Notes: generated by a model not told the origin, from the sequence alone. 64,000 bases of DNA from Marsupella aquatica (GCA_973895155.1 OZ316896.1:6438166-6502165), one strand, 5' to 3'; shown: positions 12,580 to 57,589, counted from the first letter of the stretch. Program-made: numbers and translations.

Positions 12580-15500
12580 TAGCACCCGGCGCTGGTAAAA
12601 CTAGCGCCAAAGGCGAGGTGTTTTTAAAAGACACCAAAAAACTGAATAGGAGTAAATAATTATAAGAAACTCGTAGCGGTAGGAACTCTCCACGATTATT
12701 GCTAGCGTCGGGCGCTGTGAAGAGTCTATAATTTGTACCAGTTGCACTCTCGGAGGATATTTAATGAAGGGGGTTATGAAATGTTTGATCTCGGAACGCT
12801 ATTTAACTCAGTTATAATTAACGAAAACCTTTCAATAGCGCCTGGCGCTACTACTCTAATCCCACTAGAAAACCATCGTCTATTCCAGCCTCCTCCCAAT
12901 CAGGGTCTTTCCGGAAGCCATGTAGCTGCAAAGATCCATGACTGTTCCCGCAAGTTCACCTAATACCACAAAATCAGACGAAAACCAAAACATTTATGCA
13001 ACCACAACCCGGAAAGAATCCACACCAAAGAACCCTTAGAAAATTGGGAAGCGCCTGGCGCTAGCCAATATTGCACCTGAGAACACGTCTTCACAACTCA
13101 AACTTCAAGAATTCTGAAATAAAAATATAATAGTGACAGTATGTTTGAGGAGCGCCTAGCGCTAGTAAAACTTGAAAGGGCTTAAAATCGGCCAATTCAT
13201 CAAAATGGTTACATATTGAAACATTAAATGACGTATTTGAAGAAAACCCCATTGCTACCTATAAACTATCAGATGTTTCTGATGTGGAGCTTTCAGATCT
13301 GTCCTTGGACTCGGCTTCGTCATCAATGTACTTGCTTCGGGAAACATCATCTATATAAGGGTTCCTCATGAACTTCCTGTCTGCTCCCCTCTGAAGACGT
13401 AGACCTTTTGTTTCCCAACAAAGCATTCTAATATGTCAACCCTCCTAGCCGCATTTTCAGCGTATGAGGGCAAAACAAACGGCTTCTCAAGAGTGACAAT
13501 TACATTCCTAGCTAGTCTCCTCCGGAGTTGGAAATGCTTCCTCAGATTCCATTCTGACCTGATCCAGTAAAACGGAAAAAAATATAAGTTTAGGGGATAA
13601 GAGAGCAAGAACCCAGAATTGTCAACAACACTTGAAAGGATAAAGAAGCTTATTGGAAGAACATTACTCGTCTAATTCTTCGCTCTTCTCCGAAGAATCT
13701 TCCTCCTGGGTTTTCTCTGTGTCATCTCCGACATCTCCAGAGGTACCTTCCTCTTCATCGAAATCAAAGTTGAGAATAGAGCGGAGCCTATCTTTCTTTT
13801 TGCGACCACTTAAATTGGTTGCGGGAGGAGGCAATATCGGAACATGCTTGGGATCAAGAAGTTCTAAGAAAACCCTTGATGCGGTCTCAACAAACTCACG
13901 CCTATTTTCCAACCCAATCACGAAACAACCAAAAAAATCACCAACAATGAATGTGCTTCCTGAACCTACAGTCTAGTCAAGGACAATATCTCCAGGAAGA
14001 GTAAAAAGCTCTATCACCAACTCCATAAAACCAACCAAAAGACAGGCGTTCCCAGCAAAATCCAATTCCCGGCAATGATCTGTCTTCAAGGTTGGGAGCC
14101 CAATCAAGCTAGAGATCAAAGGATCTTTGCTTATTGATAGAGACTTAAACCTTGGATCCTTTGGTACCTTTCTCTTTGAAGAAGTCTGACAAAATATGTC
14201 TAGCTTGAGGGTAAATACCTGCACGCATCGCACACGTTTGGGTAAAATTATCAACCGACGGGTAATGTCTCGAGAACTACAGCAAAGACTAAATTAGCGT
14301 CGAGCGCTAACAATAAACAAGAGATGCAATGATCTGTACCTGAATATTGGTCTTTGCTCTGTACATGGGCATAGACATGACGACATTGTGAGAATTGACA
14401 CAATGGAACTTTTTTGACTGCTAGCATGCTAAAATGACCTGCGAGACCTGGTCATGGTCATCTGAATACAAGATCGCAAGCATGCCATCATCAGAAAGGA
14501 AAGGGTCCATCGCTTTGAAGAAAGAACTGGGAACTGTGTGGTCTGGTACATTCCACTTTGGAACTCGACAGTCCATGAGCGTAGGTTTAAGTCCAGTAGG
14601 AAGATAGATGAATCCTACATTGACACCAAACGATCTTTCCTTTCCTCCTCTGATGACTCCCTTTTCCCGGGAACCCGACTTGATTAAGTCCTTTCCCCAT
14701 TTCTCTGCATCAGTCACCCAATCTGGTTTCGCTGCTTTGTTGAAAGCAGTATCAATAAATTCTTGGATACTTGTTTCCACCATGCAATGCCTAGAAGATT
14801 TACTCTTGAAGGTTCCCACATCTCTCTGAACACCAGTTCCAGCGGCATCATCTCGGAAAGATAATTCTCCAGCTTGAATTGCCCTTTTCTTCTTCTTCTT
14901 TGTACCGGTTGCATCAAGAGGGATGATCTCTTTTGCTTTGTCAATTGGAGTTACTGGGTCTGATTGGGCACCGGTATTGGCTTTGGAAGGCTCTAGAGTG
15001 GCATCTACTTTTGTTTCGTTGGTTGCAGCGTCAGACTTTCTCCCACCTAAAGGAAAAAGAGCATAATTTATTCAATGCTGAGTAATAGCGTCAGGCACTG
15101 TCCAAACCAATTGAAAAAACAAGTTACCAATAGACATAGTCATATAGTAGCGCCTAGCGCTAACCAAAATGTGAAGCTACAAGCTGAATGACAACTTACG
15201 TTTTTTGGCGGACCGCGTTGAGGTACTCGGTGCCACAGCTTTGGTTTTTGCTTTGGCTCTGGGTTTGCAACTTCGGTCAACATGAACAACCGTAGTTTCG
15301 CACACCGTTTGCAATTCTGCCGCCGACTTGCTCACATCACCTTCGATTCCCTACTTTGTGTTGGACACAAACTTGGGAGGGACCTGAGACTTCAAGAGCT
15401 TATGAAATGCGTCTTTCTCAATGTCGCCAAATGGAGAGTCCCATCTATCGGTGTCCAAATACCAAGGACAATGAATTCTCTCCCATTCTGAGAGTTTCCT

Positions 15501-17840
15501 TGGTGGAAGACACCCTTCAGCGGGATACATTGAATACACGTTGGCCAGTATGTCTCCTTCGGGAACAACGATCCACTTTTGGAAAGCAACAGGGTATGCC
15601 CGAAAGTAATCTGGCTTCACAATCTCCATATGCATGAAGAAACGGTACAGGTATCGTTTGGCCCTCTTTTGATTCTTGAGGGTGTAGTCAGCCTTGTCGG
15701 GATACTTGGAAGGCCACATTGTATTAAAAAACTTGCCTTTCACAGCGTCCCCAAATTTCTTGAAATCATTTGAGACTATTTCAATAAGCGATTCAATCGA
15801 CTCACACTCCCACTCCTGCAACCGATTGGAGGGGACTATATCACTGACCTGGCGTAGGGAGGTTTGCAGCAAACCAATAGCGATTCCCTCCACAGTGTTC
15901 CAAGTTTGCCAGGTATGGCACCATTGCTTCACTGGATTGTCATTAACGCTCAGTGGATGGAAGAATTGTTTCCTCAGCTCCGGTTGCCCATTGTCGGTAC
16001 TCCTCAGCTTGGGGTCGAGGGCAGAGACAATGGTAAACAATCTTGCTTGATCCATTGTACAGACAACTGCATCCGGCTTCTTCTCTCTCTTATTCTTCTC
16101 TGTGAGGGGGTACATCTCGGCACATGTTTGCATGAAGTCCTCAAAAGCGAGGCTTAACAGAGGAGTGATTTTTGACAACTTTATAGCCCAATCCTTTGTT
16201 GCCTCCATCATCGCTGCATGTCTTTTTGAAATCTCTTCGGGAGACCAAGGTGTACCCTGAGCAACAGCATGTTCCAGATCCATCTTAAACTGTCGAGAAT
16301 AAGACTTGATCTTATTCTCACACAAGATGTACAAAAGCGCTTATTGAGGCATGTTTTTCGTATACCACGATCCCTTCCGTGTTTTCTGCATGATCTATCC
16401 AAACTTCTTGAAGTTTGCGGCGTCAATGATAGACTTGTAGTAATTGAGTTCATTCGACAGAATTCGGTTGATACGGTCTGCGTCAAGTATCCAAGAGGGT
16501 TTGACCACTGCCTACCCAAGCCTGAAAATGAGAGAGGGAGTCAGTAGCGCCCGACGCTAGTGAAACACTGTGATCATAGATTAGAATAGAAATATGTTGG
16601 AAGAGACACTTGCTAGTTAACAGCGTGCATCGCCGCCTCAATCTCAATCAAGGACCCCTTTTCTCCCTTGAATATTGTGCACTGGATGCGAGGATGGTAT
16701 TTCACATCATTCGAATTCTTCTTCGTGACGATGGACCATGCGTAGAGTCGATGGTTTCCATCAAACACAGAAAACATCTTATCCTACAAACTGCAAACGA
16801 CATAATGTGTGTTTGCAGTTTGCAGGATAAGATGTTTTCTAATTTGTTTGTTGTGGAGGACTTCGGAGATCACATCGTAAATAGTAAACGGAGATCCACA
16901 GCAAATAAATTAGAATCATCCATCTTCCCTCTCTTGCTCTTCGGGAATGATACAACGGGTTGTGCTTCAAGAGCTCGCAAAGTAGTGGATTGAGTCACTC
17001 GATGACTATACACAGATCGTGAAAACGAGCACTCAGATGTTTGCGAGGGAACGACCTCTCTGTGTCTGTTTCCACTAAAGCATTGAGAGGAGGAGAAGGC
17101 AGGGTCCATTGCTCGCACAAGGGCAAAGGAAGTACTGACGACCACCGCGCTCTTTCCATACCGTGAACGACAAAAACCCGTCACACAGCTTTGATCGTAC
17201 CGTACTTAACATGGGAAATAAGAAGAATCCAGAGCATAGAGCCATATACGCTAAGCAAACTGAACTCATGGCCTGGATCTGTGACACATGTTGTTGTCTT
17301 ATTCGACAACACCAAAGATGATCGATGTATCGAGGGTCATGCAACCTATAGTTACCGTTGAATATGACCGTTGAAAGGAAAACCTGGGAATATATCAAAT
17401 TCATTTTTACTCACCAAATAGTAGCGTTGGGCGCTAGTAATTTCCAAGGCCTGAAGTCTTCAATTTTGACGTCAATTGGAATTCAATATAGAGCCATAAG
17501 AGGCGTTAATACGCCATTATTTTCCCCAAAACCCGTTTTTCTCATAATGGCGTAGCAAAAAACAAAGCTTCTCAGACTTTTGAAGGCTCCTACTTCAAAG
17601 TTTACCATTGTATACGTTCATAATATGAATGAAATCAATATTAGCGCCTGGCGCTAATCATCCAGTGTCTCCTTTAGGAATTCGTTTTATGTCATTTGAT
17701 TTTATTAGCGCCTGGCGCTACACATAAATTGACGTTAGATGGACCCTAAACTTTTGGATTGTTATTAATAGCGCTAGGCGCTACACATAAATTGACTCTA
17801 CATGGGCCTCTACTTTTGTATTGTTTTTAATAGCGCCTAT
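12580..17840. repeat. Dispersed 15-bp palindrome TAGCGCCNGGCGCTA (cluster in the left part of the MULE)
   Basis: Copies or variants start at 12580, 12703, 12836, 13049, 13150, 14295, 15086, 15148, 16545, 17422, 17642, 17706 and 17769, with a half-site at 17831. Further copies at 41782, 41967, 46442, 46592, 3668 and 3743. Confidence 0.9.
13260..17120 (-). pseudogene. MULE cargo gene: ParB/Srx-like (DGNHR) N-terminal domain + beta-class N4/N6 amino-methyltransferase-like C-terminal domain; intron-containing
   Basis: Minus-strand translation gives DKMFSVFDGNHRLYAW (~16783-16736), the 327-aa ORF 15351-16334, VNVGFIYLPTG...FFKAMDPFLSDDGMLAILY (14421-14819), and MELVIELFTLPGDIVLD*TVGSGSTFIVGDFFGCFVIGLENRREFVETA (~14026-13880). 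Probable introns at ~16523-16613, 15048-15199 and ~14220-14339. Premature stops resemble CAG/CAA/TGG deaminations. Confidence 0.7.
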
Positions 17841-18069
17841 TCATCATCTGATATTTCTAGAACAAAAGGGTTCTTCCTAAATGACGTTTATTGTAAATGA
17901 CGTTGATCTTAAATGACGTTGATATAACGACAAAATACATTTATGGTGTCAGAGGATTGTCTTATTATAACGGCTTTAGGGAACTGTTAGTTAGGATCAA
18001 TAACAGTCCTCGCCCGAGGAATTTCAATTCATAATTTTCCTGCGCTCATTCGCTTCCAAGGCTTTTTTG

Positions 18070-19424
18070 ATGTCTCAGTCAATCGTAGTTACCCATATGT
18101 CCACCGGTGACATTGTTTTCATTCCAGTGTCTATGGCCAAAAGGTACAGGCAAATAAGTGAGGTTTATCTTTGTGGAAGGTTTGATTTGCACATGAATGA
18201 CATAGTGGCAATCGTTCAGGAGGGAACGGAAGCCAATGACTTTGAATCTGTCGCACTTTTTTATGTCGATGATGGGGTGAGATTCTGGCACCTTAATACT
18301 AGGTTGCGCTACTCCATTGTCATTCGGGAAAAAATCAAAGACATCGGCAATCCCCTCAGAGGGATCCGGTGGATGTAGTATCTCTTTCCGATAGTGATGA
18401 TGAGGAGCCACCAAGGATCCCCCCGGTGGAGCCTTTGGCGCCTGACGTGGTCTTGGTCACAGAGGAGATGCCATCATCGCAATCCCATATTGTATACCGG
18501 AGAAGTGCAATGGACGCGCTGCTCAAGTCAACTGGGTCCAACAAACTTTCGAGGTTCATTGCGGCTGGAAACTTCCGGCATGAACAAGTACCTTGTTTGC
18601 CTCTGAAGTACAATGGAAACATAGTGTTTAAGTTGCCTCCATAGTCGGGAATTCTTTCAAAAGGATCCCGTCTACGGGACATGGACCGTACCAAGGATTG
18701 CTACATCTGGACTAGAATATTTCCTACCACTGCAAACGTGCAGCCCAAGAAATTCTGGGAATTTGGTAAAGTTACTTGTACTGGATTTATTGAGTGCAGG
18801 AATAAAACTTGTGACTACTTCCGCCGAAAGAAGAGGAGGAATGCAAAGGCATGGGCTGGTACCCCAAAACTTGGAGGCTCTCACCGTGTTGGATCGTTCA
18901 TTCAGCAGGGTGGAGTTGTTTGTCATTATTGCCAGCAACTCCCTTTTTGTGTAGAGGCATGCTCTGCAAGACTGTTTTATATGTATCCTCAAGTTCTACT
19001 TGACTCAGATACCTGTAGTCGCATGTCTTGCCTTGCGATTCATATGGGTATCCACAACCATCCTTGTCGTAAGGTATTTTCTTGGAGTGCGAAAAAGGTA
19101 GTTGAAGATGTCATAAAAAAGAAATGGGAAGGCAATCCAACTTGGACGCCTGCCAGGATTAAAAATGTAGCGATATGATCTTTTGTATAGTCTTTGTGTG
19201 AGAGCTTGGGTGACATTGAAGATATCAAAGAGACAGAGATTTTCCAGTCTCTAATGGTAGTTTCTGCTCCACAGAAGTTTGCATCTCTTTTCAGGAGTGT
19301 TAGGCAGGACCAAAAAGGCCGTGGAGAGTTGGATTTTCTTGTTCGATATCAAAAGAATATCAACATGCCTTTTCTACAGAGATATATCCTTCCAGGTCAA
19401 GGATCTCAAGAAGACAAACCTCAC
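18070..19424 (+). pseudogene. MULE transposase, 5' part (WRKY/GCM1-like zinc-finger region)
   Basis: ORF pieces 18067-18378, 18369-18644, 18681-19178 (C-x4-C...CHYC...CLAIHMGIHNHPC) and 19194-19424 (PFLQRYILPGQG..DKPH). Cut by an LTR at 19425. Confidence 0.75.
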
Positions 19425-21340
19425 TGTCACCTGCTTATCAAACGACTAACACAACAAACACCACATGGTTCCACTAAAAATCATTTGTATCGTATGACGG
19501 GGACGTGGAGGGACGCTATATGGATCAATTTCATACTAAGGATGAGTAGATTCGTTTCCGCTCCCGGAAATGTATTTTTTGATCAAGTCTACCGACTATA
19601 CGTAATCTACTTTTGATCAAGTCCCGTGGACTACCTTGCTTCTACTCCTCCTGGCCTTTGGCAAAGTGCTGTCACCACTCTCCCACTCACAAGGTCGACC
19701 AAGCCATGTAAGTTTCTCTAAATACTCATACTAGGGGAAGAACACAATCGTGCAACCAAGAGAGGGAACAACACACAAGAAGTCATGAAAATCCAACCGA
19801 ATCCATATCTATTAGTGGCCAAGGTAACACATTGCATGGGCAACCCGGTCTCCTACCGTCTACCCAACTCCTGCCTCACGGGACAATGAGCCTCTCCACC
19901 TCAATACTCCGGATTAATTCCCTACTCTTGTTGAAGGCTAATCCTCACAAAAACAACACTAGACTGAGTTCCCCCTGCTCCTACTGGGGGCTGCTGGTTA
20001 AATACCGAAAACAACAATGCGTGAACACACAAGCCTTAGGGTGTGGCGGCGGCCACTGCCCTGGCTGGCCGCCATCCGCTAGCGGCGCCGCTAACCTAAA
20101 AGTTTTCTACACATGCGGCACACACATGCACCCCTAATCCTATTGCTACCTAAGTGAGGCCAATGGTGCCTTCGTCGGCCATCACACCAACTAAACAAAA
20201 CTAGACTAATGTCCTATGTAGGCCATGGCCTACCTTCCTACTACGGGGCGGCCAACACCTCCCACTACTCTGGCCATGGGAATAGCCGAAAGTAAAAAGT
20301 TACACGAAATTTGGTCCTGAGAAATTTTCTGAGTAGCCACGGCCATCCTGATCGTAACCCCGAAAACGGCTCCCAAAACGGACATCAGACGCCCGAGATA
20401 TGGCCTACCGAGTCTCAAATCCTACCACGGCCAGCGTCACGTCCAAATCGTCCGTACGGTCTCAGCCCCCCATCACGACATCAAATTGAGGTACCCTGGC
20501 CATGGCCACATGCCCTGACTTGGCCGGGTCACCTTCCTGAAGTCCGTACGGCGCCGAACCCTCATTTTTCACAAAAACGCTCCGGTCTATATCTCTCTCA
20601 TTTTAACTCCGTTTGAGGCGTGTCTTACATCATTAGATTCAGCTTGACGAGCTCCTTCCAATAAGCCCATGAGTTCTTGATTTTGAGAAGATTGAAAATT
20701 TCGACTTTTGTGTGGCCAAGGTCCGTACGGCTCCCGTACTAACCGTCATCTGACTACTTGCTTGTAGTAAGATCCTCATCTATGGATTGGCCACTGGAAC
20801 CCACACTGTCCTCCTGGCCGGGGTCTCACTGGGCTTGCCCTCCGGTGGCCAGGGCCTCTCCCCTCAGGCCGCCTTACTGTTGGCCAACACCCTCCTTGGC
20901 CGACTTGCTACCTTGCAGGCCGCCTGCCACCCAGGTCGGCTTCTTCCTCTCTGGCCGGCTTGTTGTTTGGCCGGCGCCCAAAAGTGATGCTTGGCCACTC
21001 TCGCCTTTCGACCCGACCCCCATTACGTTAATACTAGGGCCGCTTAAAAATAAAAAGATAGGAATCCCCCAACGCCTACATGGAAGGGCATTAGGGTACA
21101 TGCCTTGTCTTGCCCCGGCCAGTGGCCAACCCCCCCTTATCCTGAGGCTTGGCCGACAACTAAAATTAAGAGGACATAAAAACCATCAACACTCACCTCA
21201 TCTTATTGTACGTAAACTATCTTTGGTGAGGTTGTAAGAGAACAAAAGGAAAAAAAAACTTGACACAAATCTATTTATTTACATGTGTGCGTCACTACTA
21301 CCCTTTAAAATCATTCCTTGGGACCATTGGCCCCATCACA
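19425..21340 (-). repeat. 3' LTR of the Athila-like element (1916 bp)
   Basis: Direct repeat of 39224-41139, with about 27 differences counted by eye (~1.4%). Preceded on the - strand by the PPT aagaggggag-cta (21341-21353). Confidence 0.95.
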
Positions 21341-21847
21341 TAGCTCCCCTCTTAATTGCGAAGCGTCCCCGCGAGCACCATACTCCTCTTCCGTATAATA
21401 TTTCTTCAGCCGCTCCTGGTTGATGCGGGTGTTGAGTAGCTGTCCCTCCAATATTTTGAGTTGCACAGATCCATTTGGGTAGACCTCGTCTACAAGGTAG
21501 GGTCCCATCCACCGCGTGTGTAACTTGCCCGGGAAATGCATAAATCGACTGTCATAGAGTAGCACCAAATCTCCCGGCTCAATGGCCGCTCGTTGAAGGC
21601 GGGCATCATAGTGTAGCTTCCGTTTGTTTTGTTGTTGCTCTGTGCGCTCTAGAGCAAGTTCACGTATTTCTGTTAGTTGTTCCAACTGATGGATGCGAGC
21701 TACTGCACTTCTTTCCTCTCCGTCTCTCTCCTTGGTCAAGATTCGGATGGTGGGCACCTCAAATTCCACCGGTACAAGAGAATGTTGGCCAAACACAAGG
21801 AAGTAGGGGGTATGGCCAGTGGTGGTTTTGTGGGCCAAGTTGTAGGC
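21311..21847 (-). pseudogene. Integrase C-terminus of the Athila-like element
   Basis: AYNLAHKTTTGHTPYFLVFG...GKLHTRWMGPY (GPY motif). Joins DWDLKLLAATYA at 33137 across the aggc TSD. Confidence 0.93.
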
Positions 21848-22738
21848 TGTCGTGCTAGAGTGCATCGATGTACCAGTTGTGTCGTACCCGCAAACCTGTA
21901 TAGTGAATACACTTACTATCCTATCAACTGTCTACTTGCATGCAGAAACAGAAAAAGAAAAGCATCCTATCTACTAATAAAATGTGAGACAAAGTGAGTC
22001 CGGAGTAAGCGAATCTGTAATGCGCTTTACTAGAATGGGCGGAAAACCGTAGGGCAGCAATGTAAGCACTACTCAACGATGAAAAACCGACCGCCGTCTA
22101 TGTAATTGACGGGCACGCTATGCAACGATCATCTACGTGTAATCGACGAGCGCTGCCAAGCAAGAAACTAGAAACTATAACCGGATTCACTTCAGAACTG
22201 AAGTGAATGAAGGGAGGCCCAGAAGGTATACCCCCTGGATCCCAAGGGATGGGCTGCCTCACCCGATAATTAAGGCAATCTGTGAGGAGCCCTCCCAACC
22301 ACTGAAACCTCACCATAACAGACGAAACAGTGGTGTGCAAGATAGACTGATCCCAGATTAGGCAAACCTACCAGCTAACTAACCTAATTGACCATCTGGC
22401 CCTATCCGGTGCCGCCGTCTCCTAGGTGGCAGCGAGGCGGGTTAAATCCCGAGCCGCAATCCTAGCGCCGGTCGCTCACCAGTCGCTAAATCTACCTGGC
22501 AATGCCCTAAATTAATCAGGATTACTGCTAACTAGGATAGCCGCTCAAACCCGAGTACGTGGTTAAGCGCCAACAAGGGTTTGCATGACAGCTGTCGTGC
22601 TAGAGTGCATCGATGTACCAGCTGTGTCGTAACCGCAAACCTGTCTAGTGAATACACTTACTATCCTATCAGCTGTCTACTTGCATGTAGAAATAGCAAA
22701 AGAAAAGCATCATATCTACTCCCCCCCCAGTCGGTGAC

Positions 22739-25700: not shown

Positions 25701-25760
25701 CGTAGCTTCTGGGTTGCTGTCAGTTGTTCTCCCATGGTCCACTCAAAATTCTCAGCTGAA
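22739..25760 (-). pseudogene. RT, RNase H, DDE integrase and C-terminal PHD finger of the nested element
   Basis: RT CGDYRALN, LDLRQGFNQ and YIDD. RNase H WAVVHFRPYLYG..TDHQPL. Integrase HSELGH..CAEC, WSCDL, TDQGTEF and AERMVQ. PHD CQIC...CDRC...HLFC...WFCHAC (ORF 22739-23242). Confidence 0.92.
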
Positions 25761-25984
25761 GGTGGTGGCTTCTCTTTTGATTTGTCTTCCTCTGTATTTG
25801 TGGAAGAGCTATGGCTAAAAGCGTGTGGTTGAAGATTAACTGGGATCTCTCCCCCCCAAGCCACTGGTCGGAAATGGTAGGTACCAACCTGTGGGAGGTG
25901 TAAATCTGTGGGAGAAAAGATCTCAGCTGTAGCTACTGCCTTCGAGGTATGGTGTGCAATGGTGAGCATTTGAAAAGCCAAACA

Positions 25985-26935
25985 TGAGGATAGTACCCAG
26001 GAAAATCCTCTGAGGTCAAGCGCTTGGCCTAGCAATTTGTTGTGTTGATGTTTGGTAAGACTAGGGTGTTGAGTGCTCCCTGTCTGAAATCCCATAGCGC
26101 GCTCGCATTCCTCTGGGGATGGTGGCTGCCACTGTTGGGTGGCCTGTCAAAATACCAGCCCTGGACCTTCACCCCGAAATGCAAAGGAGCCAGGGAAGGA
26201 TAGTAGTGTGGGCCACACTGCCCGCGGTGTGCCTATGTAGTTGGCTGGAAAAAACGATGCACGTTCAGTCCGTACCACCGGGCGAGGACGACTGCCAGGA
26301 TCCAGAATTTGTTGTAACTGTTGTGTAGGCTCTGGTTTAGTCTCCAACAGAGCAAGCTTAAGAGTATTATGTGGTGCTAGGTTAGTCCACAAATTCCGTA
26401 AACGATGGGCATAAGAACCGCATTGAGCTGCGTCAATGAGGAATGGATCACCCAACAAGTGTTGAACAACAGCAAAATCTTTCAACACATCCGTTTGGGA
26501 ATCAAATTGTGCAGGTGCGTTCTCCAGGATGTAACCCACACATGGATTGCGTTGTTGTATCCAACCAAGTACCCGAAGTAGATCCTTGAACAACATTGAA
26601 CAATTATCCTGCAGACCTCCGCCTGTGCCTGCTGCCGAAAACCCTTGGCACTCCCATCCAACAACTACCAGATGTATAGGGCCTAGTAACTGGATGTGAC
26701 GTTGTTGGATAAGTTTGATATCTGGTGGTAAAAATGTGAGAGCAGACTCCCATGCTGTGGCAGGCAAGAGTTGGGAATACTGCTTACTGAGGGCGGTAAG
26801 GCGTTGAGGCAGCAATAGGCGTGCGGCAGCATCTGTGTCACAGTACACATACTTGTGTACCCGTAATCCACACTTGAGAGCGGCCTCAAGCCCTGTAGCC
26901 AATCCCCCAAATAATTCCACAAATATGATGCCTTT
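25985..26935 (-). pseudogene. DNMT3-like DNA (cytosine-5) methyltransferase domain inside the pol polyprotein
   Basis: Motif I FVELFGGLATG, motif II YVYCDTD, motif IV VGWECQGFS (catalytic Cys), motif VI YILENA, motif VIII AHRLRNLWTNL, motifs IX/X ERAMGF..G.T...KLLGQALD. One frameshift near 26147. Confidence 0.9.
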
Positions 26936-31349: not shown

Positions 31350-31559
31350 TGGTTGAGATTGCGGAGCTGACAAGCCCATCCACGCAAAATCATGGTGTCC
31401 ATTGCAACTATGTTAAGCCTTTCAATAGGTGCAATAACACTAGAATTCATAATATTCTCATAGTGCTCGTATCAGTAGTGAAGGATTCATAATATCCCAG
31501 TTAGATATACACATCTCCACAAAAAAACATTTTGTTCAATACCCACAACACTGAGTATC

Positions 31560-36100: not shown

Positions 36101-38968
36101 CACCTTGGCCACGTATAACCAAGGGTGGCCAATCAATATGGGAAACCCGTATGGCCTGACCGGCCGCATTACCAAGTAATTGAGGGGAAAGGATTTTCCT
36201 CCAATCATTGTGGGTATCCTGGTGAGGCAACCCAACGGTACCACTCGGGCACCATCGGCCAGCCTCGTAGCTCGTGTAGGTGGCTCCAACTCTGTGTATC
36301 CTAATCGGTTTGCCGTCTCTTCAGTCATGATGTTGACTCCTGAGCCCCCGTCCACTGGTACAAACTGTATTGCACATCCGTTGATGTCTATCGTGAGTTC
36401 TGGGGCACCCAAATCTTCCGTGACCCAATTGACTTGAATGGGGTCAGCCCCTACCCTGGGTAACCTCCTTCTACGCCGTCTTCCCATAAGCATCTCTTTG
36501 ACTTGGTGGCGGTAGAGGGAGCTATCACGTAGTAGTTGGCCAATGGTGGCAGTGACTGGGCAGTCAAGTATGTCTTGAGTGATGTTGTATGTAGTTGCAG
36601 GAGGTATGGGTGGGATGATCTCCTCTCCTGGTTTCCAGCGAACAACCTTCTCCTCCGCTTTCTTTTTGGCCCTTGCCTCCTCCATGTCTTTGTCAATGGC
36701 CACTTGCATGGCTTGTGCTTCTAGCTCCTCTAGTTGCTTCCGTACTTCCTCTCCTACTTTGGGGTAGAACAACTTGGGGTTGTCCCGGTCAAAGTCGCTA
36801 TCTTCCATGGGTGGCACCTTTGGTTCGTGTGATGTGCCTAAGGTGGAAGCTTGATGCACCTCCTTGTATTTTTGCTTCTCAATGGACTTGTCCTTCTTCT
36901 TCCCAGATCGAGTGGAGACCCGATAACAAGAGTAATGCCTCCTCTCATCGTCGCTGTCCACCTCCGGTAGAGTCTCCATGTGAGTCCACTCGTGACTTGG
37001 TGGTGTGTGCGCAACGACCTCTGAAGCTACAACAGCAACCCTAGGTGCCTCCACAACTGGAGATACTACAACGACTGAAGATACCAACTCCTCTTTGATG
37101 GTGGCCAGCTTCTGGTTGGGGGTGTCCACTACGGCCTCTTCTTGTTTGATAACCAGTCCTCTTTCAGGCGGGGTCAAAGGGGTGTCGACTGCTTCCGTTG
37201 TGAGAAAGTTGACGTTAGCTTCCTTGAGAGGTGGTGGGGGTCCCTTCTTCTCTGGTACCCCGGCTTGTTGAGCTTTGAACGCTTCCAATGTTGGGCAGTG
37301 TGGTGCAAGATGACCCTCTCCCTTGCACAACTGACACAACCGGGAAAAATCTCCATTTCCTTGACGTGTGGGCTCCGGGCACACATTAGCATAGTGGCCA
37401 GCCACTCTACAATTGTAACAAATAGGAATCTTTTTCACTCCAGGATACGGTGCTCGATTTCCCGGAGTAGCACTGGGATAGTTGGAGTATGATGGTGCTC
37501 CAGCATTAGTTGAGACGCCATGAATGCTCCTAGGTCCCGGGTTGAGAGGTTGTACACTATACACATTGGCCTCTGGTGGCTCCTCCATGAAGTACTCTAC
37601 TGGCCCTTCCGTTGCATAGGGAGGCGTTGAGTAGCTTGCCCCCTCACCGTCCTCCTCCCGTACTTGGAAAACCTTGGCCGGTTCTCCCGTTGGGCACTCT
37701 TTTGGGGCATGGCCAAACTTCATGCACTTGGTACACCACACATTGGCTCTCTCCCCCAGAACTTTTCTCCTCTCTGGCTTGAGTCCTGCAAAATGCACTT
37801 TCAACGCTTTCATTTGCTGTGTCAACTCGTCGTACCTGGCCTCTTGCTCCTTCAGACGTCTTGCCGTTGACAATGGCGTAACGGCCACCGTGGGTAGTAC
37901 CACTTCACGATGAGAGGACTTCTTGATCTTCTTGGACAACTTTTTCTTCTTCTTCCTCCATTTTTCAGCTTCTGACTCCGTAGTGTCTGACTCCGTAGTG
38001 ATCTCAGAATCCTCAGATTCATCACTACTATCCGACTCAGATGCACTCAATTCATCACTAGAGGAACTGTCAACCGGCTTCAGCTTCTTACGTCAACAAT
38101 GTTTGCTTGTGGCATCAGCTGCAGTGTATGACTCAGCTGCTGCAATAGCTTCAGCCAATGTGGTCGGCTTGGCTTGACGTACAAAGAACCCCATCTTGCT
38201 TGGTAGGGCAGCTACAAACCACGCTTGGCGCATAGCATCATCGGTACGGGCTTGTATCCGTCGTACCAACTTTTGGAACCTTTGCAAAAACCTCCGTAAT
38301 GACTCCTTCTTCTTCATTCTGAGTTGGCCCACCTTCAAAAGTGAGGTGGCCTCCACTCCAATGGATCTGAACTCCTTCAAGAAGGCTTGCTTGAATAAAG
38401 CCCAATTGGCTTTCACATTGGCCAACAAGGAGATGAACCATGGGCCTGCCTCTCCCCTCATCATTCCAGGAATGATAGTGAGCTTGTGTGCAGACTCCCC
38501 ATTAGCTTCGGCTATTCCCTCAAACTCCTCAATCCATTCATCGGGATCATCCTTCGGCCTACCCTTGAAAGGTATGTACTGAACACGGGTACGTTGAGCA
38601 GCGGCCATGTGAACTATTTGGGGTAGCGCGGACCTCCGTGCCACTGGTAGCAGTGCAATGGGCTCCGGACTTGGACTCCGTGAAAGCTCCCGTTGCACCA
38701 CCCCAAAGAGCTCCCTCTGCTCTAGCGCTTGGTCTGCTTCTAGTTCATCGTCTACACGTATGGCTTCGTTATGTTGAGCCGCTTCTTGGTGTACTCCATG
38801 ATGTCCTCCTAACTCTAGTGGCAACCTCCACTCCTCAGCAAGTTGTAATCGTTCTTCGGCCGCCAATCTTTGTCTAGTACCAATCCAAGATGGCCCTTGG
38901 CCTAGCTCTGGTATTGGCGTATGAATGCGTTGGGGAGTTGCTCTACCTCCCCTTCTCCCTCTCGGCAT
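33137..38968 (-). pseudogene. Gag-pol of the Athila-like element (gag, 3 CCHC knuckles, protease, RT, RNase H, integrase N/core)
   Basis: Retrotrans_gag-like ORF 38093-38968. CTKCMKFGHAPKEC, CYNCRVAGHYANVC and CQLCKGEGHLAPHC plus protease VDGGSG in 36080-38050. RT FIDDF, RNase H YVDVS and integrase H..H..CDPC / WGIDF / SDRG / ERAN in 33078-35372. Broken by frameshifts. Confidence 0.93.
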
Positions 38969-39185
38969 CCCATTGAGTCCTGCATGCCAAGCTCACCAAA
39001 AACAATGTCACCAACAAATCTTCTCACACATCAATCGTCGCAAGTTGCGTTATGGTTGATGCACAATAACAAAGTAACCAAAGAACTTCTCAAGTATCAA
39101 CCGTCGCAAGTTGCGTTGTGGTTGATACACCTGAAATCCACATAGACGTAGCTCCCCTCCTTCTGCAATCAAACAAGAAGAAGGT

Positions 39186-39204
39186 ATCCCCGGCAGCGGC
39201 GCCA
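39186..39204 (-). other. Primer-binding site complementary to plant tRNA-Asp
   Basis: The minus strand reads TGGCGCCGCTGCCGGGGAT, matching (1 mismatch) the complement of the plant tRNA-Asp(GUC) 3' end, TGGCGCCGTTGCCGGGGAT. Confidence 0.85.
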
Positions 39205-39223
39205 AAAACAAGGACCTCACCTA

Positions 39224-41139
39224 TGTCACCTGCTTATCAAACGACTAACACAACAAACACCACATGGTTCCACTAAAAATTGTTTGTATCGTATGACGGG
39301 GACGTGGAGGGACGCTATATGGATCAATTTCATACTAAGGATGAGTAGATTCGTTTCCGCTCCCGGAAATGTATTTTTTGATCAAGTCTATCGACTATAC
39401 GTAATCTGCTTTTGATCAAGTCCCATGGACTACCTTGCTTCTACTCCTCCTGGCCTTTGGCAAAGTGCTGTCACCACTCTCCCACTCACAAGGTCGACCA
39501 AGCCATGTAAGTTTCTCTAAATACTCATACTAGGGGAAGAACACAATCGTGCAACCAAGAGAGGGAACAACACACAAGAAGTCATGAAAATCCAACCGAA
39601 TCCATATCTATTAGTGGCCAAGGTAACACATTGCATGGGCAACCCGGTCTCCTACCGTCTACCCAACTCCTGCCTCACGGGACAATGAGCCTCTCCACCT
39701 CAATACTCCAGATTAATTCCCTACTCTTGTTGAAGGCTAATCCTCACAAAAACAACACTAGACTGAGTTCCCCCCTGCTCCTACTGGGGGCTGCTGGTTA
39801 AATACCGAAAACAACAATGCGTGAACACACAAGCCCTAGGGTGTGGCGGCGGCCACTGCCCTGGCTGGCCGCCATCTGCTGGCGGCGCCGCTAACCTAAA
39901 AGTTTTCTACACATGCGGCACACATATGCACCCCTAACCCTATTGCTACCTAAGTGAGGCCAACGGTGCCTTCATCGGCCATCACACCAACTAAACAAAA
40001 CTAGACTAATGTCCTATGTAGGCCATGGCCTACCTTCCTACTATGGGGCGGCCAACACCTCCCACTACTCTGGCCATGGGAATAGCCGAAAGTAGAAGTT
40101 ACTCGAAATTTGGTCCTGAGAAATTTTCTGAGTAGCCACGGCCATCCTGATCGTAACCCCGAAAACGGCTCCCAAAACGGACATCAGACGCCCGAGATAT
40201 GGCCTACCGAGTCTCAAATCCTACCACGGCCAGCGTCACATCCAAATCGTCCGTACGGTCTCGGCCCCCCATCACGACATCAAATTGAGGTACCCTGGCC
40301 ATGGCCACATGCCCTGACTTGGCCGGGTCACCTTCTTGAAGTCCGTACGGCACCGAACCCTCATTTTTCACAAAAACGCTCCGGTCTATATCTCTCTCAT
40401 TTTAACTCCGTTTGAGGCGTGTCTTACATCATTAGATTCAGCTTGACGAGCTCCTTCCAATAAGCCCATGAGTTCTTGATTTTGAGAAGATTGAAAATTT
40501 CGACTTTTGTGTGGCCAAGGTCCGTACGGCTACCGTACTAACCGTCATCTGACTACTTGCTTGTAGTAAGATCCTCATCTATGGATTGGCCACTGGAACC
40601 CACACTGTCCTCCTGGCCGGGGTCTCACTGGGCTTGCCCTCCGGTGGCCAGGGCCTCTCCCCTCAGACCGCCTTACTGTTGGCCAACACCCTCCTTGGTC
40701 GACTTGCTGCCTTGCAGGCCGCCTGCCACCCAGGTCGGCTTCTTCCTCTCTGGCCGGCTTGTTGTTTGGCCGGCGCCCAAAAGTGATGCTTGGCCACTCT
40801 CGCCTTTCGACCCGGCCCCCATTACGTTAATACTAGGGCCGCTTAAAAATAAAAAGATAGGAATCCCCCAACGCCTACATGGAAGGGCATTAGGGTACAT
40901 GCCTTGTCTTGCCCCGGCCAGTGGCCAACCCCCCCTTATCCTGAGGCTTGGCCGACAACTAAAATTAAGAGGACATAAAAACCATCAACACTCACCTCAT
41001 CTTATTGTACGTAAACTATCTTTGGTGAGGTTGTAAGAGAACAAAAGGAAAAAAAAACTTGACACAAATCTATTTATTTACATGTGTGCGTCACTACTAC
41101 CCTTTAAAATCATTCCTTGGGACCATTGGCCCCGTCACA
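39224..41139 (-). repeat. 5' LTR of the Athila-like element
   Basis: tgtcacctgc...ccccgtcaca, flanked by the TSD ctcac at 41140-41144. Confidence 0.95.
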
Positions 41140-41144
41140 CTCAC

Positions 41145-43500
41145 ATATTAAGATGACTTCCAAAGGCCATGGGTCTGAGGTGGATCTTTTGCGGCAAATG
41201 CAACCTGGAGGGATGCTTGAAGGTGCTTGGGTAAGCTTTGATGTCATGAAACAAATGACCAAGGATTGGGTGACTTTCAGCGCACACGTTTATGATCACA
41301 ATTACCGCGCATTGTGTACAATATTTACTTGCGAGGTAAAAGTTGAGGACACGACGTCGTTCGAGAAGGCTTGGAGATTAATGATTGAGGTTTCCAAAGA
41401 GAATGGGTTAGATAATCCAACCATTCATGGCTTCATGGCAGACAATGCCCAAGCCGGATGGTTAGCAGTCCGGAATGTTTTTTTTGGAGGGCACCCAAAC
41501 CCTGAACGGGAGAGGACGGACGCTTTCCATTTTTACCAAGCTTTTCATCGCCATTCTGTTGAAGGAGTGTTGGAAGAGAAGTAGGCAGAACTTCGAATGC
41601 TATGGGATAAATTATGGAATGCACCGACATTTGTAGAGGCTTACCGACTTTCAAGAGAGATTGACCTATGGTGGCAGTTGGGTAACAACTTACTTGGAAA
41701 GCTCCAAATGCTTCAGAGTTGGATATCGTGGTGGGTTGTGCGTTGGAGGCAGTGGGGAAATTTTATTTGCTTGGTGAGTAATAGCGCCTGGCGCTAGTAA
41801 TATGCAAGTCAGATTCCTTTGTAGAAGTACATTTTTCAAATGACATTCCTCAACATTCCATCCAAAGAATCCAAATAATGTAATTGATTCTCAAATATTG
41901 ACCTGTTTATTTTCATAAACATGTGATTACACAATAATATTGATGGTTTTGTCAAAATGTTCTGCCTAGCGCCTGGCGCTAGTATGTTTTGCGGATTCTT
42001 ACTAGTGTTTATGCTTTGTCGTTCCAGGACAAAAGTGCTGAAGAAGGCGCTAGGATTCCTAACTATACCGGATCAAAGTTTGTTCACGTAGGAATGAAAG
42101 CATGGATAATGAAAAAAAGTTGGGCTCTTCGAGGCATGTGAAATGGATCAGAATCGAGCTATATCTCAGGTTGCAGCATATATCGCATATCGAAAAGGAT
42201 TGAGTAGAGGAAGAGGTCCTACAATATGGGAACTAACTTTCCGTTCAGCAGACCAGGCAGGTTCCCCAAAGCTGTTCGAGGATGCGATGAACATGCTCCT
42301 CTCCAATGCAGCTAAGTTTGACTTGGAGAGAAGCGTTCCTCTCAATGGAGATGTTGTAACAAAGTCTGTCAAGAGGAAAGGACCTGCAACTGGGATTGTC
42401 TCGCCACAAGACTCCCACCGGCATGATAAAGTCCTTATCACATCGCCGAATACCAGATCACTCAAGCGTAAAAATCTGCACCACACAATGTTTGCTTTCG
42501 TATCGGAAGAAAAACCTGATGACATTTTCGTTGTCAATCTCTCAGGAAGTGATGATTCAAGGGATGCAGAACGTGATGATTTCAGTACACCGCAGGGTCA
42601 ACATCAATCACGTTCAACACAATACCCACAAAGCGCTCCCACTGTACTTCAGCAGACATCGCTCCAATCTCCAGTTCTTGAAACAGAAGTCATGCAGGGT
42701 TCATGGCATCTGCGTCAGACATCAAGATTTGGGGCCGGTCCATAGTGCAACGCGTCATTTGGCGGTAGTTCTGAGAGAGATGAGTGTCGAAATAGAGTGA
42801 AGAAAGTTGGGTTCCCCTCATCAAATGGTGTCATTGGCATTGTTGTCAAAGGACAATGCATGTTCAGGGGGGAACCCATAGCCAAAATGATATGGTTCTG
42901 CCCAAACAACACATGTTATCGGAGCCGTCCCCGCCGTGGTGTAGTGAACCTGCCCTCCTTTCCTGATGTTCTTTCTGTTATAAAAGGAACAAATGTTTCG
43001 GATGCTGAGATGAAGTATCTTGTTGACTAGGGAATACCTATAGCCCGAGGAAGAGACGGTCCTCTACCTCCACCATCACTTTTTGAGCTTTGAATCAACA
43101 TAAACTTATTTCCAAAGAGAGTCAATCTTCTGGAACACACTGTTCGTCTCCGGAGTCGGAATGGAAAGAACACGGTTCCTCGATCGACCTTGACCCATGG
43201 TCACATGAAGAGGATTGAATCTGCAAGCTAGAAAAGAGACCATGTTCGTCCAAGGACAGTGGGATGTTTCTATTAGGAACTCATGGGGGAAGCAATTCAA
43301 AGTACAAACACATGAGAATCTAAGGACGTCGAATAGTTACTTTGTGCAGATTTGTATTTTCCCGACTTGTTCTTGTGAGGATTTCTATCGTCGACATTCT
43401 CGCAGACATCCATATATGCCTTGCAAACATTTGTACTGTGTGAGTATCATTGCTAGTTTTACTTTACTCTTTCCTTTCAACATTTTAGAGAAATTTACCT
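41145..43500 (+). pseudogene. MULE transposase, 3' part (DDE core + SWIM zinc finger)
   Basis: GAWVSFDVMK (first D), HGFMADNAQAGWLAVRNVFF (second D), AFHFYQAFHRH (MULE C/D-x-x-H), intron ~41774-42027, and SWIM finger CSCEDF...PCKHL (~43368-43432). Confidence 0.85.
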
Positions 43501-44200
43501 TGGAGGTCTAAGTCTGGATAGCCCTCCAATGGCTCCCTCCTCTATGAATGAAACCTTTGGTGGGCTTAGAATGCTTAGAAACATCTAGGAAAAAGCTTTC
43601 CAATGAGCCTTGCATTTTAGATATCTAGTATCAAGTACATCACATTTTTTTGAATTTTTTGCCCTCCTTGATAGTCGGCCATTTCTTCCTGATCCTTGCA
43701 CAAAACATTTTGCTCTTAAAAATGTTTAGATCCATTTTGGAAAGATATTTCAAATGAGCCTAGCTGTGTCAGATTTGTTAAGCATTTGAAGAGCCTACAA
43801 ATTGCTGGATTGCTCTACACTTCCTTGAACATCTAGCTACAACATCAGCTAAAATGATTTCAAATTTTCCCTTCACGGCATTAAAGTTTTCATGCTTAGA
43901 ATTCTCAGGATTTTTCTGAAACACTTTTTCATTAAGCCTACAATGTTACATTTCATGAAATATTGACGAGCTCACAAATTGTTGAATCTCTCTACACTTT
44001 CTTGAAAGTCTAACTATGTAGTCAGCACAAAATGATAGCAGATTTTTCACTCATCTCTTAATTATACCTTTTATACTTCAACACTTAGAAATGTTTTCGA
44101 GAGAGATTTCCAATGAGCCTTGCCTGAGGGATATGCTTGGTATACCCCCTACCAGTAAAACTTTACTTGATCAGCCCCGAGAAAGTTTTTGCCCTGATAC
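43500..44200. repeat. Internally repeated non-coding TE fragment
   Basis: tttccaatgagcct-like motif four times (~43596, 43748, 43926, 44106) and a ~50-bp repeat at ~43790 / ~43967. Confidence 0.5.
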
Positions 44201-46020
44201 CCCCTCTTAATGAGCCGTACACTCAGTTCTTATATAAGGCAAAAGTGCACGGGTCCCTACTGTACCTTACCTTTTCACCACAATAGTTGCCTCATGTGCT
44301 TGACCATGTATGCAATGGGGCCACACTTTCGTGCTGTGGCACTAGCTCAATTCCTAGCTAGGATTTGAATACATTATGGATGATGTCAAATTGTATTGAT
44401 GTTCTGATAAGTCAAGACGCAATACATTGTGGAGAGCTAGTGTCGCCTTTTCTTGCGGGTTCTAGGCAGGAACATTGTTCTCTCATGGGTTTAGGCAAGC
44501 ACGATTATTTAGTTGGTTTGGGCAAAGGCAATGACAATTTTAGGCACGCACAAAATCAGTAAGGTTTAGGCTTGAAGGAAAGCTTTACCCCGAGTATAAA
44601 CTAGCAATGTGGGAAGGACTCTTTTCTGATAATTTTAATGTTTATGTTTAGGGTGAGCCTTATGTGGTGCGTTTTCCAACCCTCTAACCGATGAAACCAC
44701 CATCAACCCACCATCTACCACTGGTTAATTTATGACTTGCTGATAGCCACTTCATCAGCTATCTGCCTGAGAAACATGCTAACCTTCCTTAGCCACACCT
44801 GCTAGAACAATTCTTTCACTGGACTTGTGAAACCCTGTTGTGCTGAATCCTCACTCTTCTCTTTAACTTAATTGGGTATGTTAGTTTGTATTCCGCCCCG
44901 GAATGTACACATTTGTCTTACTTGTTTAAGCCAGCTGAGGGTCTTTCTCACTACACAACCCACACTTCACTGACAAAACATTCTCAATGCCTCACGTTCT
45001 CTCTGAATTGGGTGCGGCAGTCTCCAATCAAGCTGATGCGATTCACACTCTGTTCACTAGATCCACTCCTTCTGATGTAAATTGATCAAGCAAAATGTAT
45101 TAACAATTCACACTGTTTCTTGGTCTATTGACAAAGACTTGCAAACTAGGCCAACAAAGGCCAACTCAATTCAAGAAATCACACAAAGATTCAAGATAAC
45201 TTGTTGTTTACTCATATCCAGCAGTCCAGATTTAGCCAAGAGCTTCTTTAACTCACAAAGCAATTGATACACTAAAGGCTTAACTGAGAGAAAGCCCAAA
45301 CACCCATGCTGCCAGGGTTTTTATCCCTGCAGCGTTGGGGTCCACATGATCTGCAAGAATCCTAACAATTCAATCACAAGCTTACACCTTGATAATCTTG
45401 TTTATTTTCCTAAATTTAATTGCATTTACACTAAGTTGGAGTACAGGTGGAACCTGACTTCAAACAAGAACTGTCCTAATCCTAGTAGCAAGGTGTGACT
45501 TGCCTTGTTCTATTCTAAAGTAGTTGCACCCTTCTGGCCCAAGCCCGTCTTCTTCCGCCACGTCCTCCCTCCAACCAATGAGTGGCTCCCCTTAATTGTC
45601 AGATGACCGGCAACAACCCCTCACCATCTGGTCATGCACATCCTTCTGATCGACTCTGCCTTAGCCTTGATGGCTTTGGCTTAATTCCTTCCCTAGCTTC
45701 CCGACATTGGCAATGTCCACCCCAGCTACGGCTTTGGTAACGGCCTTGGCCTCAATGTCGGACTTCACTTCCTCCCTCCATGCCTACTCCCTGATCCGCT
45801 TAGTCTCTAATCATTACCATTACCATTACCATCTAACACCCAAGGCTTATCATTACTATAATCTATGAGAGCAAAGCAGTGTCAGAACCCATTTACCATA
45901 GCTCTGAGTTTATCAGCAAAACTTACTTTTATTACGACCATAGTTTCACAAATGTGGGCTGCCATGCTCTCTACTTCCTCCAAGGTTGCCCTCTAAGCGG
46001 TCGGGACGGGTATAGCCACC

Positions 46021-46610
46021 GAGACAGGAAATAGGAAAACAGGAATTCTGGTAGCAAAAAATTGTTTGCTGTTATCAAGAATATGTTGTTGTTACCAGGA
46101 AAAGTTAGTCATTGGAACAGGATAATACTTCATTACTTCAAGCCAGATACATCTGAAAAAAAGCAATATGCATTGCGCTTCATTTACATTCTAGAGCTTA
46201 GAACCAACTAACACGACAACAATTGTTGTCTGATGATAAGTGAGTCCGGAATCACCAACATACTTCTGGAAAATAGTGTCCCAAAAACCACAGACACACA
46301 AACATTTACCAGTGAATGCCATGGGAAAAAACATTGACATGGTAGGTCCCACCATAAGTAACATAATATTATAGGCCGACAATAAGGCAGAAAACCACAA
46401 ATGAAAACTTTGGACAATTTGAAAGACCACCAACGATGGGCTAGCGCCTGGCGCTAGCTAAAATGGAAACAACCAACACATTTAGAAAATGACATTGGAT
46501 GAATGCAGAATGTGGGAAACAAAAATTTAAAATATCATTTCCAGTGATAGGATTACAATGAAGTAAATGATAATAAGGAAAACTTCCATCCCAGCGCCAG
46601 GCGCTAACAT
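46021..46610. mobile_element. Separate terminal fragment of the MULE family
   Basis: agacaggaaataggaaaacaggaattc resembles the ~12453 terminus in direct orientation, followed by palindromes at 46442 and 46592. Confidence 0.6.
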
Positions 46611-57560: not shown

Positions 57561-57589
57561 ATGTCACCAACATTTTCACAATAAGTCCC

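Follow-up and report, generated by a model that had tools for sequence, protein, structure and literature searches.

A palindrome dispersed through the non-coding DNA of a Mutator-like transposon in Marsupella aquatica is a candidate binding site for the element's own cargo protein

The window analysed here, a 64-kb stretch of DNA from the land plant Marsupella aquatica, contains a copy of a Mutator-like element (12439..46798) that has been split by a stack of nested LTR retrotransposons and by an inversion. Reassembled from 12439-19424, 41145-43438 and the inverted 46008-46798, the carrier measures 10,071 bp. It is flanked by an 8-bp target duplication, GTCCCGAC, found at 12431-12438 and, inverted, at 46000-46007 (700 boundary pairs were tried; about 0.01 by chance), which lies within the 8-11 bp range used for MULEs in the text of 10.64898/2026.08.24.746577. 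Both ends begin with G and share a degenerate terminal inverted repeat of about 150-200 bp (gapped local alignment score 66), and contigs from copies that are 80-99% alike pile up over the three element parts. The LTR stack (19425..41139; LTRs 98.4% alike, 5-bp target duplication CTCAC) sits within the transposase gene and is outside the system described here; its empty site is visible as loose ends in run X5. The inversion (43439..46798, minus strand) includes the right end of the element (46008-46798) and flanking host repeats; its joint, 43438-46798, connects opposite strands, is seen in contigs of runs X4 and X5, and is crossed by the transposase frame.

The element carries two genes. The transposase gene (18071..46798, plus strand) is in pieces, at about 18071-19424, 41145-41773 and 42028-43438, with a final piece that runs on the minus strand from 46798 down to about 46675. 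Inspection of its translations by eye, against patterns that we take to be those of Mutator transposases, showed D, D, xFH and SWIM-like CxC...CxH motifs, and no Pfam or PDB match was obtained. The cargo gene (13267..17110, minus strand) was recognised from its translations, a Pfam N6_N4_Mtase match and a DGNHR motif. Its exons comprise a ParB-like DGNHR exon (about 16614-17110), a middle exon (15200-16521), two methyltransferase exons (14340-15046 and 13668-14218) and a last exon (about 13267-13558), the gene start and the last exon being placed by eye. The present copy is broken by in-frame stops and by a 72-bp inverted duplication at 16769-16840.

A 15-bp palindrome is repeated across this element. 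Six perfect copies had been reported in a first-pass annotation, at 12836, 17642, 17706, 41782, 41967 and 46442, and all are present, where none of 100 shuffled windows contained any. With up to three mismatches allowed, the window holds 20 matches against 0.65 expected and a shuffle maximum of three, and no other palindrome with arms of six bases occurs more than twice. Eighteen of the 19 positions first listed are among these matches, the exception being 3743, which has four mismatches. The variants are, as described, mostly C>T or G>A, which account for 14 of the 20 changes across 18 sites, but the supposed CCWGG core applies to 13 of the 18 sites, the centre being of CCSGG type in the other five. 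Two changes fall in 136 positions of the AGCG/CGCT outer arms, against 10 in 68 positions of the inner CC/GG (Fisher p 4e-4, with the arm/inner split picked post hoc). The arms are the better conserved even though they contain CG, the context that has changed most often between paired LTRs of the window (15/240 for CG, 11/207 for CHG and 11/835 for CHH). The exact motif was also matched in 85 stretches of viral contigs, at least 80 of which, among the matches listed, have a single site each, and these were taken as background.

Seventeen of the 20 matches belong to this single Mutator-like element, and all 17 are in its non-coding DNA, which makes up 3,184 of the 10,071 bp (32%; P 3e-9, or 3e-8 with tandem copies collapsed), giving 5.3 sites per kb of non-coding DNA. 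The palindrome is an element-specific sequence tag, its 17 copies being restricted to non-coding parts of the 10-kb transposon, as had been proposed; 46442 and 46592 are included once the inversion is resolved. The confinement holds despite the richer G+C content of coding DNA (45%, against 39% in non-coding DNA). Of the three remaining matches, one occupies the matching intron of a relative, and two, at 22463 and 33009 with two mismatches each, are one duplicated site, carried by both LTRs of a nested retroelement. The latter are at chance level, but they qualify the earlier statement that the nested retroelements have no sites; the host eIF5B gene was correctly said to have none (no match at three mismatches or fewer).

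Five sites are in the left subterminal region, which is also the cargo 3' non-coding DNA (12580, 12703, the perfect 12836, 13049 and 13150, spanning 12580..13164), and two in the inverted right subterminal region (the perfect 46442, and 46592; 46442..46606), so that the two subterminal regions together hold seven. Within the cargo gene, one site (14295..14309) is found in intron 14219-14339, between the two methyltransferase exons, two (15086 and 15148; 15086..15162) in intron 15047-15199, and one (16545..16559) in intron 16522-16613, which has a GC donor in the present copy. Transposase intron 41774-42027 contains two perfect sites, 41782 and 41967 (41782..41981). The claim that every cargo intron and the transposase intron bear sites is borne out for the latter and for three of four cargo introns, but the last of the inferred cargo introns, 13559-13667, is siteless. 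Absence of sites from exons is also what selection on the protein alone would be expected to produce. The divergent promoter region (17422..17839) includes 17422, the perfect 17642 and 17706, 17769 and a half site at 17831, the last four spaced at 62-64 bp and partly within a tandem repeat. The half site is complete in other family copies (6-base insertion after 17836; contigs of runs X1, X2 and X5). There is no site in the first 141 bp or the last 434 bp of the element; the first site is 142 bp in, and 10 of the 17 are internal.

Relatives of the element provide a view of how the palindrome varies. A relative approximately 70% identical (fragment about 2810-4590; sites in 3668..3757) retains site 3668, with two mismatches, and 3743, with four, in the same transposase intron, the former a degree of match reached in none of 1000 intron shuffles; a third in-window relative (56.8-58.8 kb) has only traces with five and six mismatches (equalled in 54 and 778 of 1000 shuffles). 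Metagenome scans returned no relative among seven stretches in the first instance and two of 83 in the second, both on contigs of about 1.1 kb. In relative L002, whose methyltransferase exon is 41% identical to the window cargo, the intron corresponding to 14219-14339 contains a different palindrome, 28 bp long and near-perfect, with 14-bp arms and a 14-bp core that has the TAG(C/T)G...CGCTA arms in common with the 15-bp palindrome (the arm length was reached in 1 of 2000 shuffles, the shared arms in 2 of 2000). The 1.1-kb sequence of relative L001, which takes in the last intron together with the end of the methyltransferase intron, shows no palindrome. Co-variation of motif and protein between subfamilies is suggested by a single pair, L002 having its own palindrome in the same intron.

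The predicted C-terminal part of the cargo protein, about which the annotation is silent, has the fold of a beta-class N6/N4 methyltransferase. It matches Pfam N6_N4_Mtase (PF01555) above cut-off (E 9.8e-7) and a DpnA-type methyltransferase (E 3.8e-5), the model of its homologue P0013 matches CcrM (Foldseek E 2e-9; VIA Z 12.7, rmsd 4.0, 185 aligned), and a permuted Rossmann fold with a C-terminal SAM motif is found in both the PF01555 match and the P0013 model. The catalytic motif [DNS]PP[YFW] is absent from all five family proteins compared, and inspection by eye of the pieces from the window and from L002 showed no DPPY-type motif, LP(T/N)G and VPxWN standing in its place. Concerning motif IV, two alignments disagree on which residues are at DPPY, and a profile alignment left the register unfixed. 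P, W and N are invariant and might yet make up an active site. The domain is likely to be non-catalytic.

At the N-terminus, a ParB/Srx-fold nucleotide-binding domain is weakly predicted from the conserved DGNHR alone, its GxxR being invariant in three of three sequences, including P0053 and P0054. The ParB-like exon had no match in Pfam, in PADLOC or among PDB sequences, and none among phages or plasmids; matches to a PHROG ParB-like family (E 0.11) and a DGQHR domain (E 0.065) were sub-significant, and its model, at pLDDT 38 poor for searching, had no Foldseek match. Matches to influenza PA (E above 0.1) were taken as chance. ParB Box I cannot be made out in the broken cargo copy. The 440-residue middle exon and its homologue P0052 gave no DNA-binding domain, no HTH and no family or Atlas match, the Atlas rows for P0052 being sub-threshold penicillin acylases that we rejected; protein searches with the middle exon yielded none of 1686 candidates among longer proteins and one of 1859 in a near-length search.

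On balance we favour the view that these palindromes are self-recognition sites for the element's own cargo protein, comparable to those of VANC. The confinement of the sites, their absence from the terminal ~140 bp and the relative's own palindrome fit recognition by an element-encoded dimer, as with VANC. It is reasonably probable that the cargo, rather than the transposase or a host factor, reads the palindromes; a dimer of the cargo protein would engage the AGCG arms and might protect the family's promoters from host silencing, itself not methylating DNA, so that the element would recognise, and perhaps shield, its own copies. Anti-silencing of the VANC kind, suggested by analogy, has somewhat less than an even chance of being the outcome. 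Loading and sliding of the cargo as a parS-like clamp is a doubtful extension.

A rival reading keeps the cargo as the protein that binds the palindromes but makes it a working amino-methyltransferase whose catalytic motif is unusual, and which deposits 6mA or 4mC at the sites or in their surroundings to label the element as self. The whole beta-class fold is kept, as is a GxG SAM motif with an acidic residue; all six of the aligned pieces have the same L, P, P, W and N, and MAFFT aligns VPxWN to DPPFN, retaining one P and an aromatic residue. However, whichever register is used, a mostly hydrophobic residue takes the place of the motif's initial D/N/S, and model strand 48-52 and the VIA start points (assuming an ungapped start) set FLPN on DPPY, under a CcrM numbering that we presume to be correct. 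Because the catalytic motif is replaced, marking of the element is less likely than binding and shielding, and we consider an active enzyme unlikely, although activity is proposed for the Ectocarpus protein in the text of PMC12477816. A role for the N-terminal zinc domain of the transposase, in end synapsis or transcriptional self-activation with the cargo incidental, is a shade less likely again. One Mutator transposase alone does bind and activate cognate copies according to 10.64898/2026.08.24.746577, and seven sites here are subterminal; yet the published protein peaked at terminal repeats, whereas our sites avoid the ends and are mostly internal, and the degenerate terminal repeat differs in sequence from the palindrome.

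Any dimeric factor would suit a palindrome, and the divergent-promoter cluster would suit an enhancer, so the sites might recruit a host transcription or chromatin factor exploited by the element. This is improbable, given that L002 has in the corresponding intron a palindrome of another length and another centre, a change that a fixed host factor is unlikely to tolerate, and that eIF5B has no match with three mismatches or fewer. Least probable of all is that the palindromes are RNA or single-stranded DNA hairpins, serving splicing or transposition, or neutral footprints of MITEs or local duplication. Most internal sites are intronic, some close to splice sites, the L002 palindrome reaches 14-bp arms, and four sites derive from the 62-64 bp tandem array; but on the strand tested 10 of the 13 changes in the stem disrupt a pair and the other three leave a wobble, one cargo intron has no site, Rfam matches number zero, and seven sites are outside both coding regions. 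Membership of an unrelated MITE, which the annotation had named as an outcome that would refute its proposal, was rejected: MITE copies would share a body, with terminal repeats and a target duplication at each, whereas the flanks here are unrelated except in the tandem pair (median 14/40 identities, background 12).

A close precedent in a land plant is VANDAL21 of Arabidopsis, as described in PMC5735166: within its own Mutator family, VANC21 binds short motifs that are dense in introns and in intergenic and terminal non-coding DNA. There too an accessory gene is carried, the motif is family-specific, partly multiplied by tandem repeats, and differs between related families. VANC motifs are, in contrast, 9-bp, non-palindromic and in the same orientation, and VANC binding and demethylation are proven, whereas binding by the Marsupella cargo is predicted from sequence. 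The architectures also differ, judging by Pfam scans of the cargo exons, which gave N6_N4_Mtase alone and no VANC-related domain.

The idea of a self-binding passenger has already been published for transposons of red and brown algae, and algal ParB-methyltransferase cargo and ParB-adjacent inverted repeats have likewise been reported. The red algal PAG3/PAG2 of Plavaka and Mutator elements (bioRxiv 10.1101/2025.02.11.637652) resemble the present case in a ParB-like accessory gene, nearby inverted repeats, proposed self-binding and an N6-methylase accessory gene in the same elements, and the authors liken the system to VANDAL; there, however, as described, ParB forms a fusion with a 2OG oxygenase, a separate gene encodes the methylase, and the repeats form tandem arrays beside the gene, whereas the Marsupella sites are single and spread over introns, promoter and both ends. 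The Marsupella case departs from the Ectocarpus Sola1-1_Ec32 accessory gene (PMC12477816) in its Mutator-like carrier and land-plant host, in the family-wide replacement of the catalytic motif, and in having a defined, dispersed palindrome, a word absent from the main text of that paper. Our literature search matched no parS-like palindromes in eukaryotic transposon introns; Iyer 2011 (cited by PMC12477816) and supplements lay outside its scope and may describe the family. On ParB, methyltransferases or anti-silencing in bryophyte transposons, only the Bostrychia paper was on topic among the matches listed, judged by title and the start of the abstract.

Bacterial-type amino-methyltransferase folds in eukaryotes are represented by MpDN4MT1 of a liverwort (bioRxiv 10.1101/2021.02.12.428880) and rotifer N4CMT (PMC8885841), but these are described as host genes, MpDN4MT1 with an intact SPPY motif, whereas the Marsupella protein is transposon cargo without the motif; ParB goes unmentioned in both texts. 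ParB-N6N4-methyltransferase fusions are reported as common in bacteria and phages (bioRxiv 10.1101/2025.10.10.680097), where only 11 of 28 purified ParB-fold members bind NTP and specificity is not predictable from sequence. ParB/parS shares with our system the GxxR P-motif and palindromic sites of 13-16 bp (10.1101/2025.10.10.680097; PMC11790492), but in Marsupella neither ParA nor an HTH was identified. VirB is described as a CTP-requiring anti-silencer (PMC10653881). It is conceivable, if rather unlikely, that land-plant Mutators have rebuilt a ParB/parS-type device, with nucleotide-gated clamp loading at private palindromes in introns and ends, sliding along the element, a disarmed methyltransferase that shields or reads cytosines, programmable anti-silencing of an origin independent of VANC, and co-divergence of motif and protein.

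A land-plant Mutator element with a short, defined, family-specific palindrome makes the algal proposal directly testable with one protein and one 15-bp probe, for which the relative's different palindrome is a specificity control. Were binding and de-silencing true, transposons would have a second, independent means of escaping DNA methylation in plants, possibly a ParB-type clamp acting on eukaryotic chromatin, and the cargo-palindrome pair would be a candidate sequence-specific epigenome tool. As a lead only, the KorB operator oligonucleotide given in PMC11790492 contains TAGCGGCTA, whose outer arms are similar to those of the Marsupella palindrome.

The 15-bp palindrome, with outer arms AGCG and CGCT, inner CC/GG and a variable centre base, is present as six exact copies, all located where the first-pass annotation had placed them, while none of 100 shuffled sequences contained any. 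Allowing up to three mismatches, the window holds 20 matches against 0.65 expected, and in an unbiased count of arm-6 palindromes across the window only this one recurs more than twice. Eighteen of the 19 places originally listed fall within this set; the remaining one, at 3743, has four mismatches. Variation among 18 sites is mostly C>T or G>A (14 of 20 changes), as the annotation had described, and the CCWGG core that it proposed holds for the 13 sites with A or T at the centre but not for the five with C or G.

Translating the element that carries these sites (12439–46798) reveals a pair of divergent genes, both broken. The cargo lies on the minus strand, between about 17110 and 13267, and the transposase runs from near 18071 on the plus; exon boundaries were set from homology and splice signals. 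The transposase is interrupted by a nested LTR stack (19425–41139) with a 5-bp target duplication. Copies 80–99% alike are numerous over the element in contigs from public sequencing runs (for its left part, 1760 contigs in X1, 4459 in X2 and 705 in X5), and in contigs of runs X4 and X5 position 43438 is joined to 46798 on the opposite strand. Because other copies have this joint and the transposase frame is continuous across it, the right end of the window copy is inverted, and the sites at 46442 and 46592 belong to the element. Once the inversion is allowed for, an 8-bp target duplication appears (12431–12438 and 46000–46007), adjoined by a degenerate terminal repeat, and the element measures 10,071 bp. 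Three things place it in Mutator: the target duplication, its ends, and motifs recognised by eye. Neither Pfam nor PDB returned a match for the transposase.

Seventeen of the 20 matches lie inside the element, all of them within its non-coding part, which totals 3,184 bases (P 3e-9, or 3e-8 with tandem copies collapsed); the annotation had likewise seen none in exons. Five are in the left end region, four in three cargo introns, four in the divergent promoter, two in the transposase intron and two in the right end region. Every intron of both genes had been said to hold a site; this is true of the transposase intron and those three cargo introns but not of the cargo intron at 13559–13667, which is empty. 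At 17831 the window copy has only half a site, which other copies have in full. Beyond the element's own sequence, the match at 3668 falls in the matching transposase intron of a relative about 70% identical (0 of 1000 shuffles). The nested retroelements, described as free of sites, do hold matches at 22463 and 33009, but these are one two-mismatch site duplicated in paired LTRs, and at chance level. A MITE as the source of the sites is ruled out, since the flanks of separate sites are unrelated, the tandem pair excepted. Two further short palindromes with central mismatches lie in the divergent promoter region (17502–17515 and 18007–18020).

The cargo itself is composite. Its N-terminal exon, disrupted in the window copy by a 72-bp inverted duplication, encodes DGNHR, which is invariant in three of three sequences and is consistent with the P-motif (GxxR) of ParB-fold proteins; the best library matches of this exon are weak (E 0.11 and 0.065). 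Domain and family searches found no DNA-binding domain in the middle exon. The fourth exon matches Pfam N6_N4_Mtase (E 9.8e-7) and beta-class methyltransferases in PDB, and has 48 relatives, 25 of them with E < 1e-10. Named homologues of the cargo are all from the liverwort Calypogeia fissa (three of ten proteins in one look-up, none being named in another), which makes a bryophyte host likely. A model of one homologous protein, P0013 (pLDDT 65; its alignment took in four weak, likely bacterial sequences), matches CcrM, M1.HpyAVI, MboIIA, PvuII and rotifer N4CMT. By eye, a metagenome contig (L001, 620–960) and the window (13267–13667) share a motif-free intron directly after the methyltransferase exon and then a similar coding exon; the cargo therefore has a conserved C-terminal tail.

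The likeliest explanation is that the cargo protein made by intact copies would bind, as a dimer, the palindrome of its own family, whose sites occupy positions that coding constraint leaves free, and would keep host methylation from closing the element's body and shared promoter, much as the Arabidopsis anti-silencing protein VANC does. The methyltransferase fold would then serve as a non-catalytic module binding DNA or SAM. That the cargo is instead an active, self-marking enzyme is suggested by the fold and is unlikely: the catalytic (D/N/S)PP(Y/F/W) is absent from five of five stored family proteins and, by eye, from the pieces in the window and in a second metagenome contig (L002), and LP(T/N)x and PxWN are invariant in its place. 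The P0013 model suggests that LP(T/N)x occupies the DPPY position by the CcrM numbering, and MAFFT favours PxWN there; neither placement keeps the D/N/S, and catalysis has presumably been lost.

The AGCG arms show two changes in 136 positions against 10 in 68 for the inner CC/GG (Fisher p 4e-4), and arm CpG alone two in 68 (p 0.03), the split having been picked after looking. Since mutability in the window's two LTR pairs is highest at CG, the arms are kept better than neutral decay predicts, through selection for a reader or protection from methylation. The transposase is an improbable reader, and a host factor a slightly less probable one. A structural role or neutral origin of the palindromes is very improbable; against a hairpin, pairing on the one strand tested is lost in 10 of the 13 changes that fall in the stem. 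Among relatives, L002, whose methyltransferase exon is 41% identical, carries another palindrome in the same intron, the one separating the methyltransferase exons; it is near-perfect over 28 bp, and its 14-bp core bears the same outer arms (1/2000 and 2/2000 shuffles); L001 has no palindrome across its 1.1 kb. In a third relative, within the window (56769–58770), traces of the motif are weak and not significant against shuffles. This relative is rearranged: a deletion has removed the promoter region, and the 5' part of its transposase (minus) directly abuts the exons for the middle and methyltransferase parts of the cargo (plus).

The cargo groups with accessory genes of algal transposons that combine ParB with a methyltransferase. 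It would work in the manner of a VANC-type self-recognition system but is not a member of VANC, the layout of whose motifs is given in PMC5735166, and its place among the ParB/parS clamps is tentative. PMC12477816 describes an Ectocarpus Sola element with a 1104-aa ParB-like and N4/N6 methyltransferase gene opposite the transposase and proposes self-binding, and PMC4738411 reports chlorophyte and chytrid methylases fused to ParB-HTH. A Bostrychia preprint (bioRxiv 10.1101/2025.02.11.637652) describes Plavaka elements with ParB-like accessory genes and tandem inverted repeats, reports homologues of those genes from both Plavaka and Mutator elements of Chondrus, and names VANDAL as the sole proven example. 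In the open main-text literature searched, we found no report of such a system in a bryophyte or with intron-dispersed palindromes. An oligo of the RK2 KorB operator containing TAGCGGCTA has outer arms in common with the palindrome (PMC11790492), a likeness that is probably coincidental but offers a lead. The annotation's reading of a parS-like load-and-spread self-recognition system is supported in part: the sites and the methyltransferase fold are there, and we infer the cargo as reader, the loss of catalysis, any nucleotide-gated sliding and an anti-silencing outcome.

Other features of the window include a Gypsy-type frame in the nested LTR stack (26147–27715, minus), between protease and reverse transcriptase, with a domain resembling C5 DNA methylases (Pfam E 0.0056). 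It is consistent with the Gypsy-DNMT3 elements of streptophytes that bioRxiv 10.64898/2026.05.21.726589 mentions, and a methylase-carrying retroelement thus sits inside a Mutator carrying a methylase fold. The insertion target of the Mutator copy is another repeat (10941–12430 and 45543–46007), with multi-copy stretches of its own and a coiled-coil-like reading frame at 11560–12323. Large nested inverted repeats at 4597–10040 (arms up to about 1.3 kb, 73–89% alike) are probably a foldback-type or rearranged element truncating the relative at 2.8–4.6 kb. The host eIF5B gene lies at 48954–55404; in its N-terminal part, 132-bp (44-codon) repeats form an array (49107–50066).
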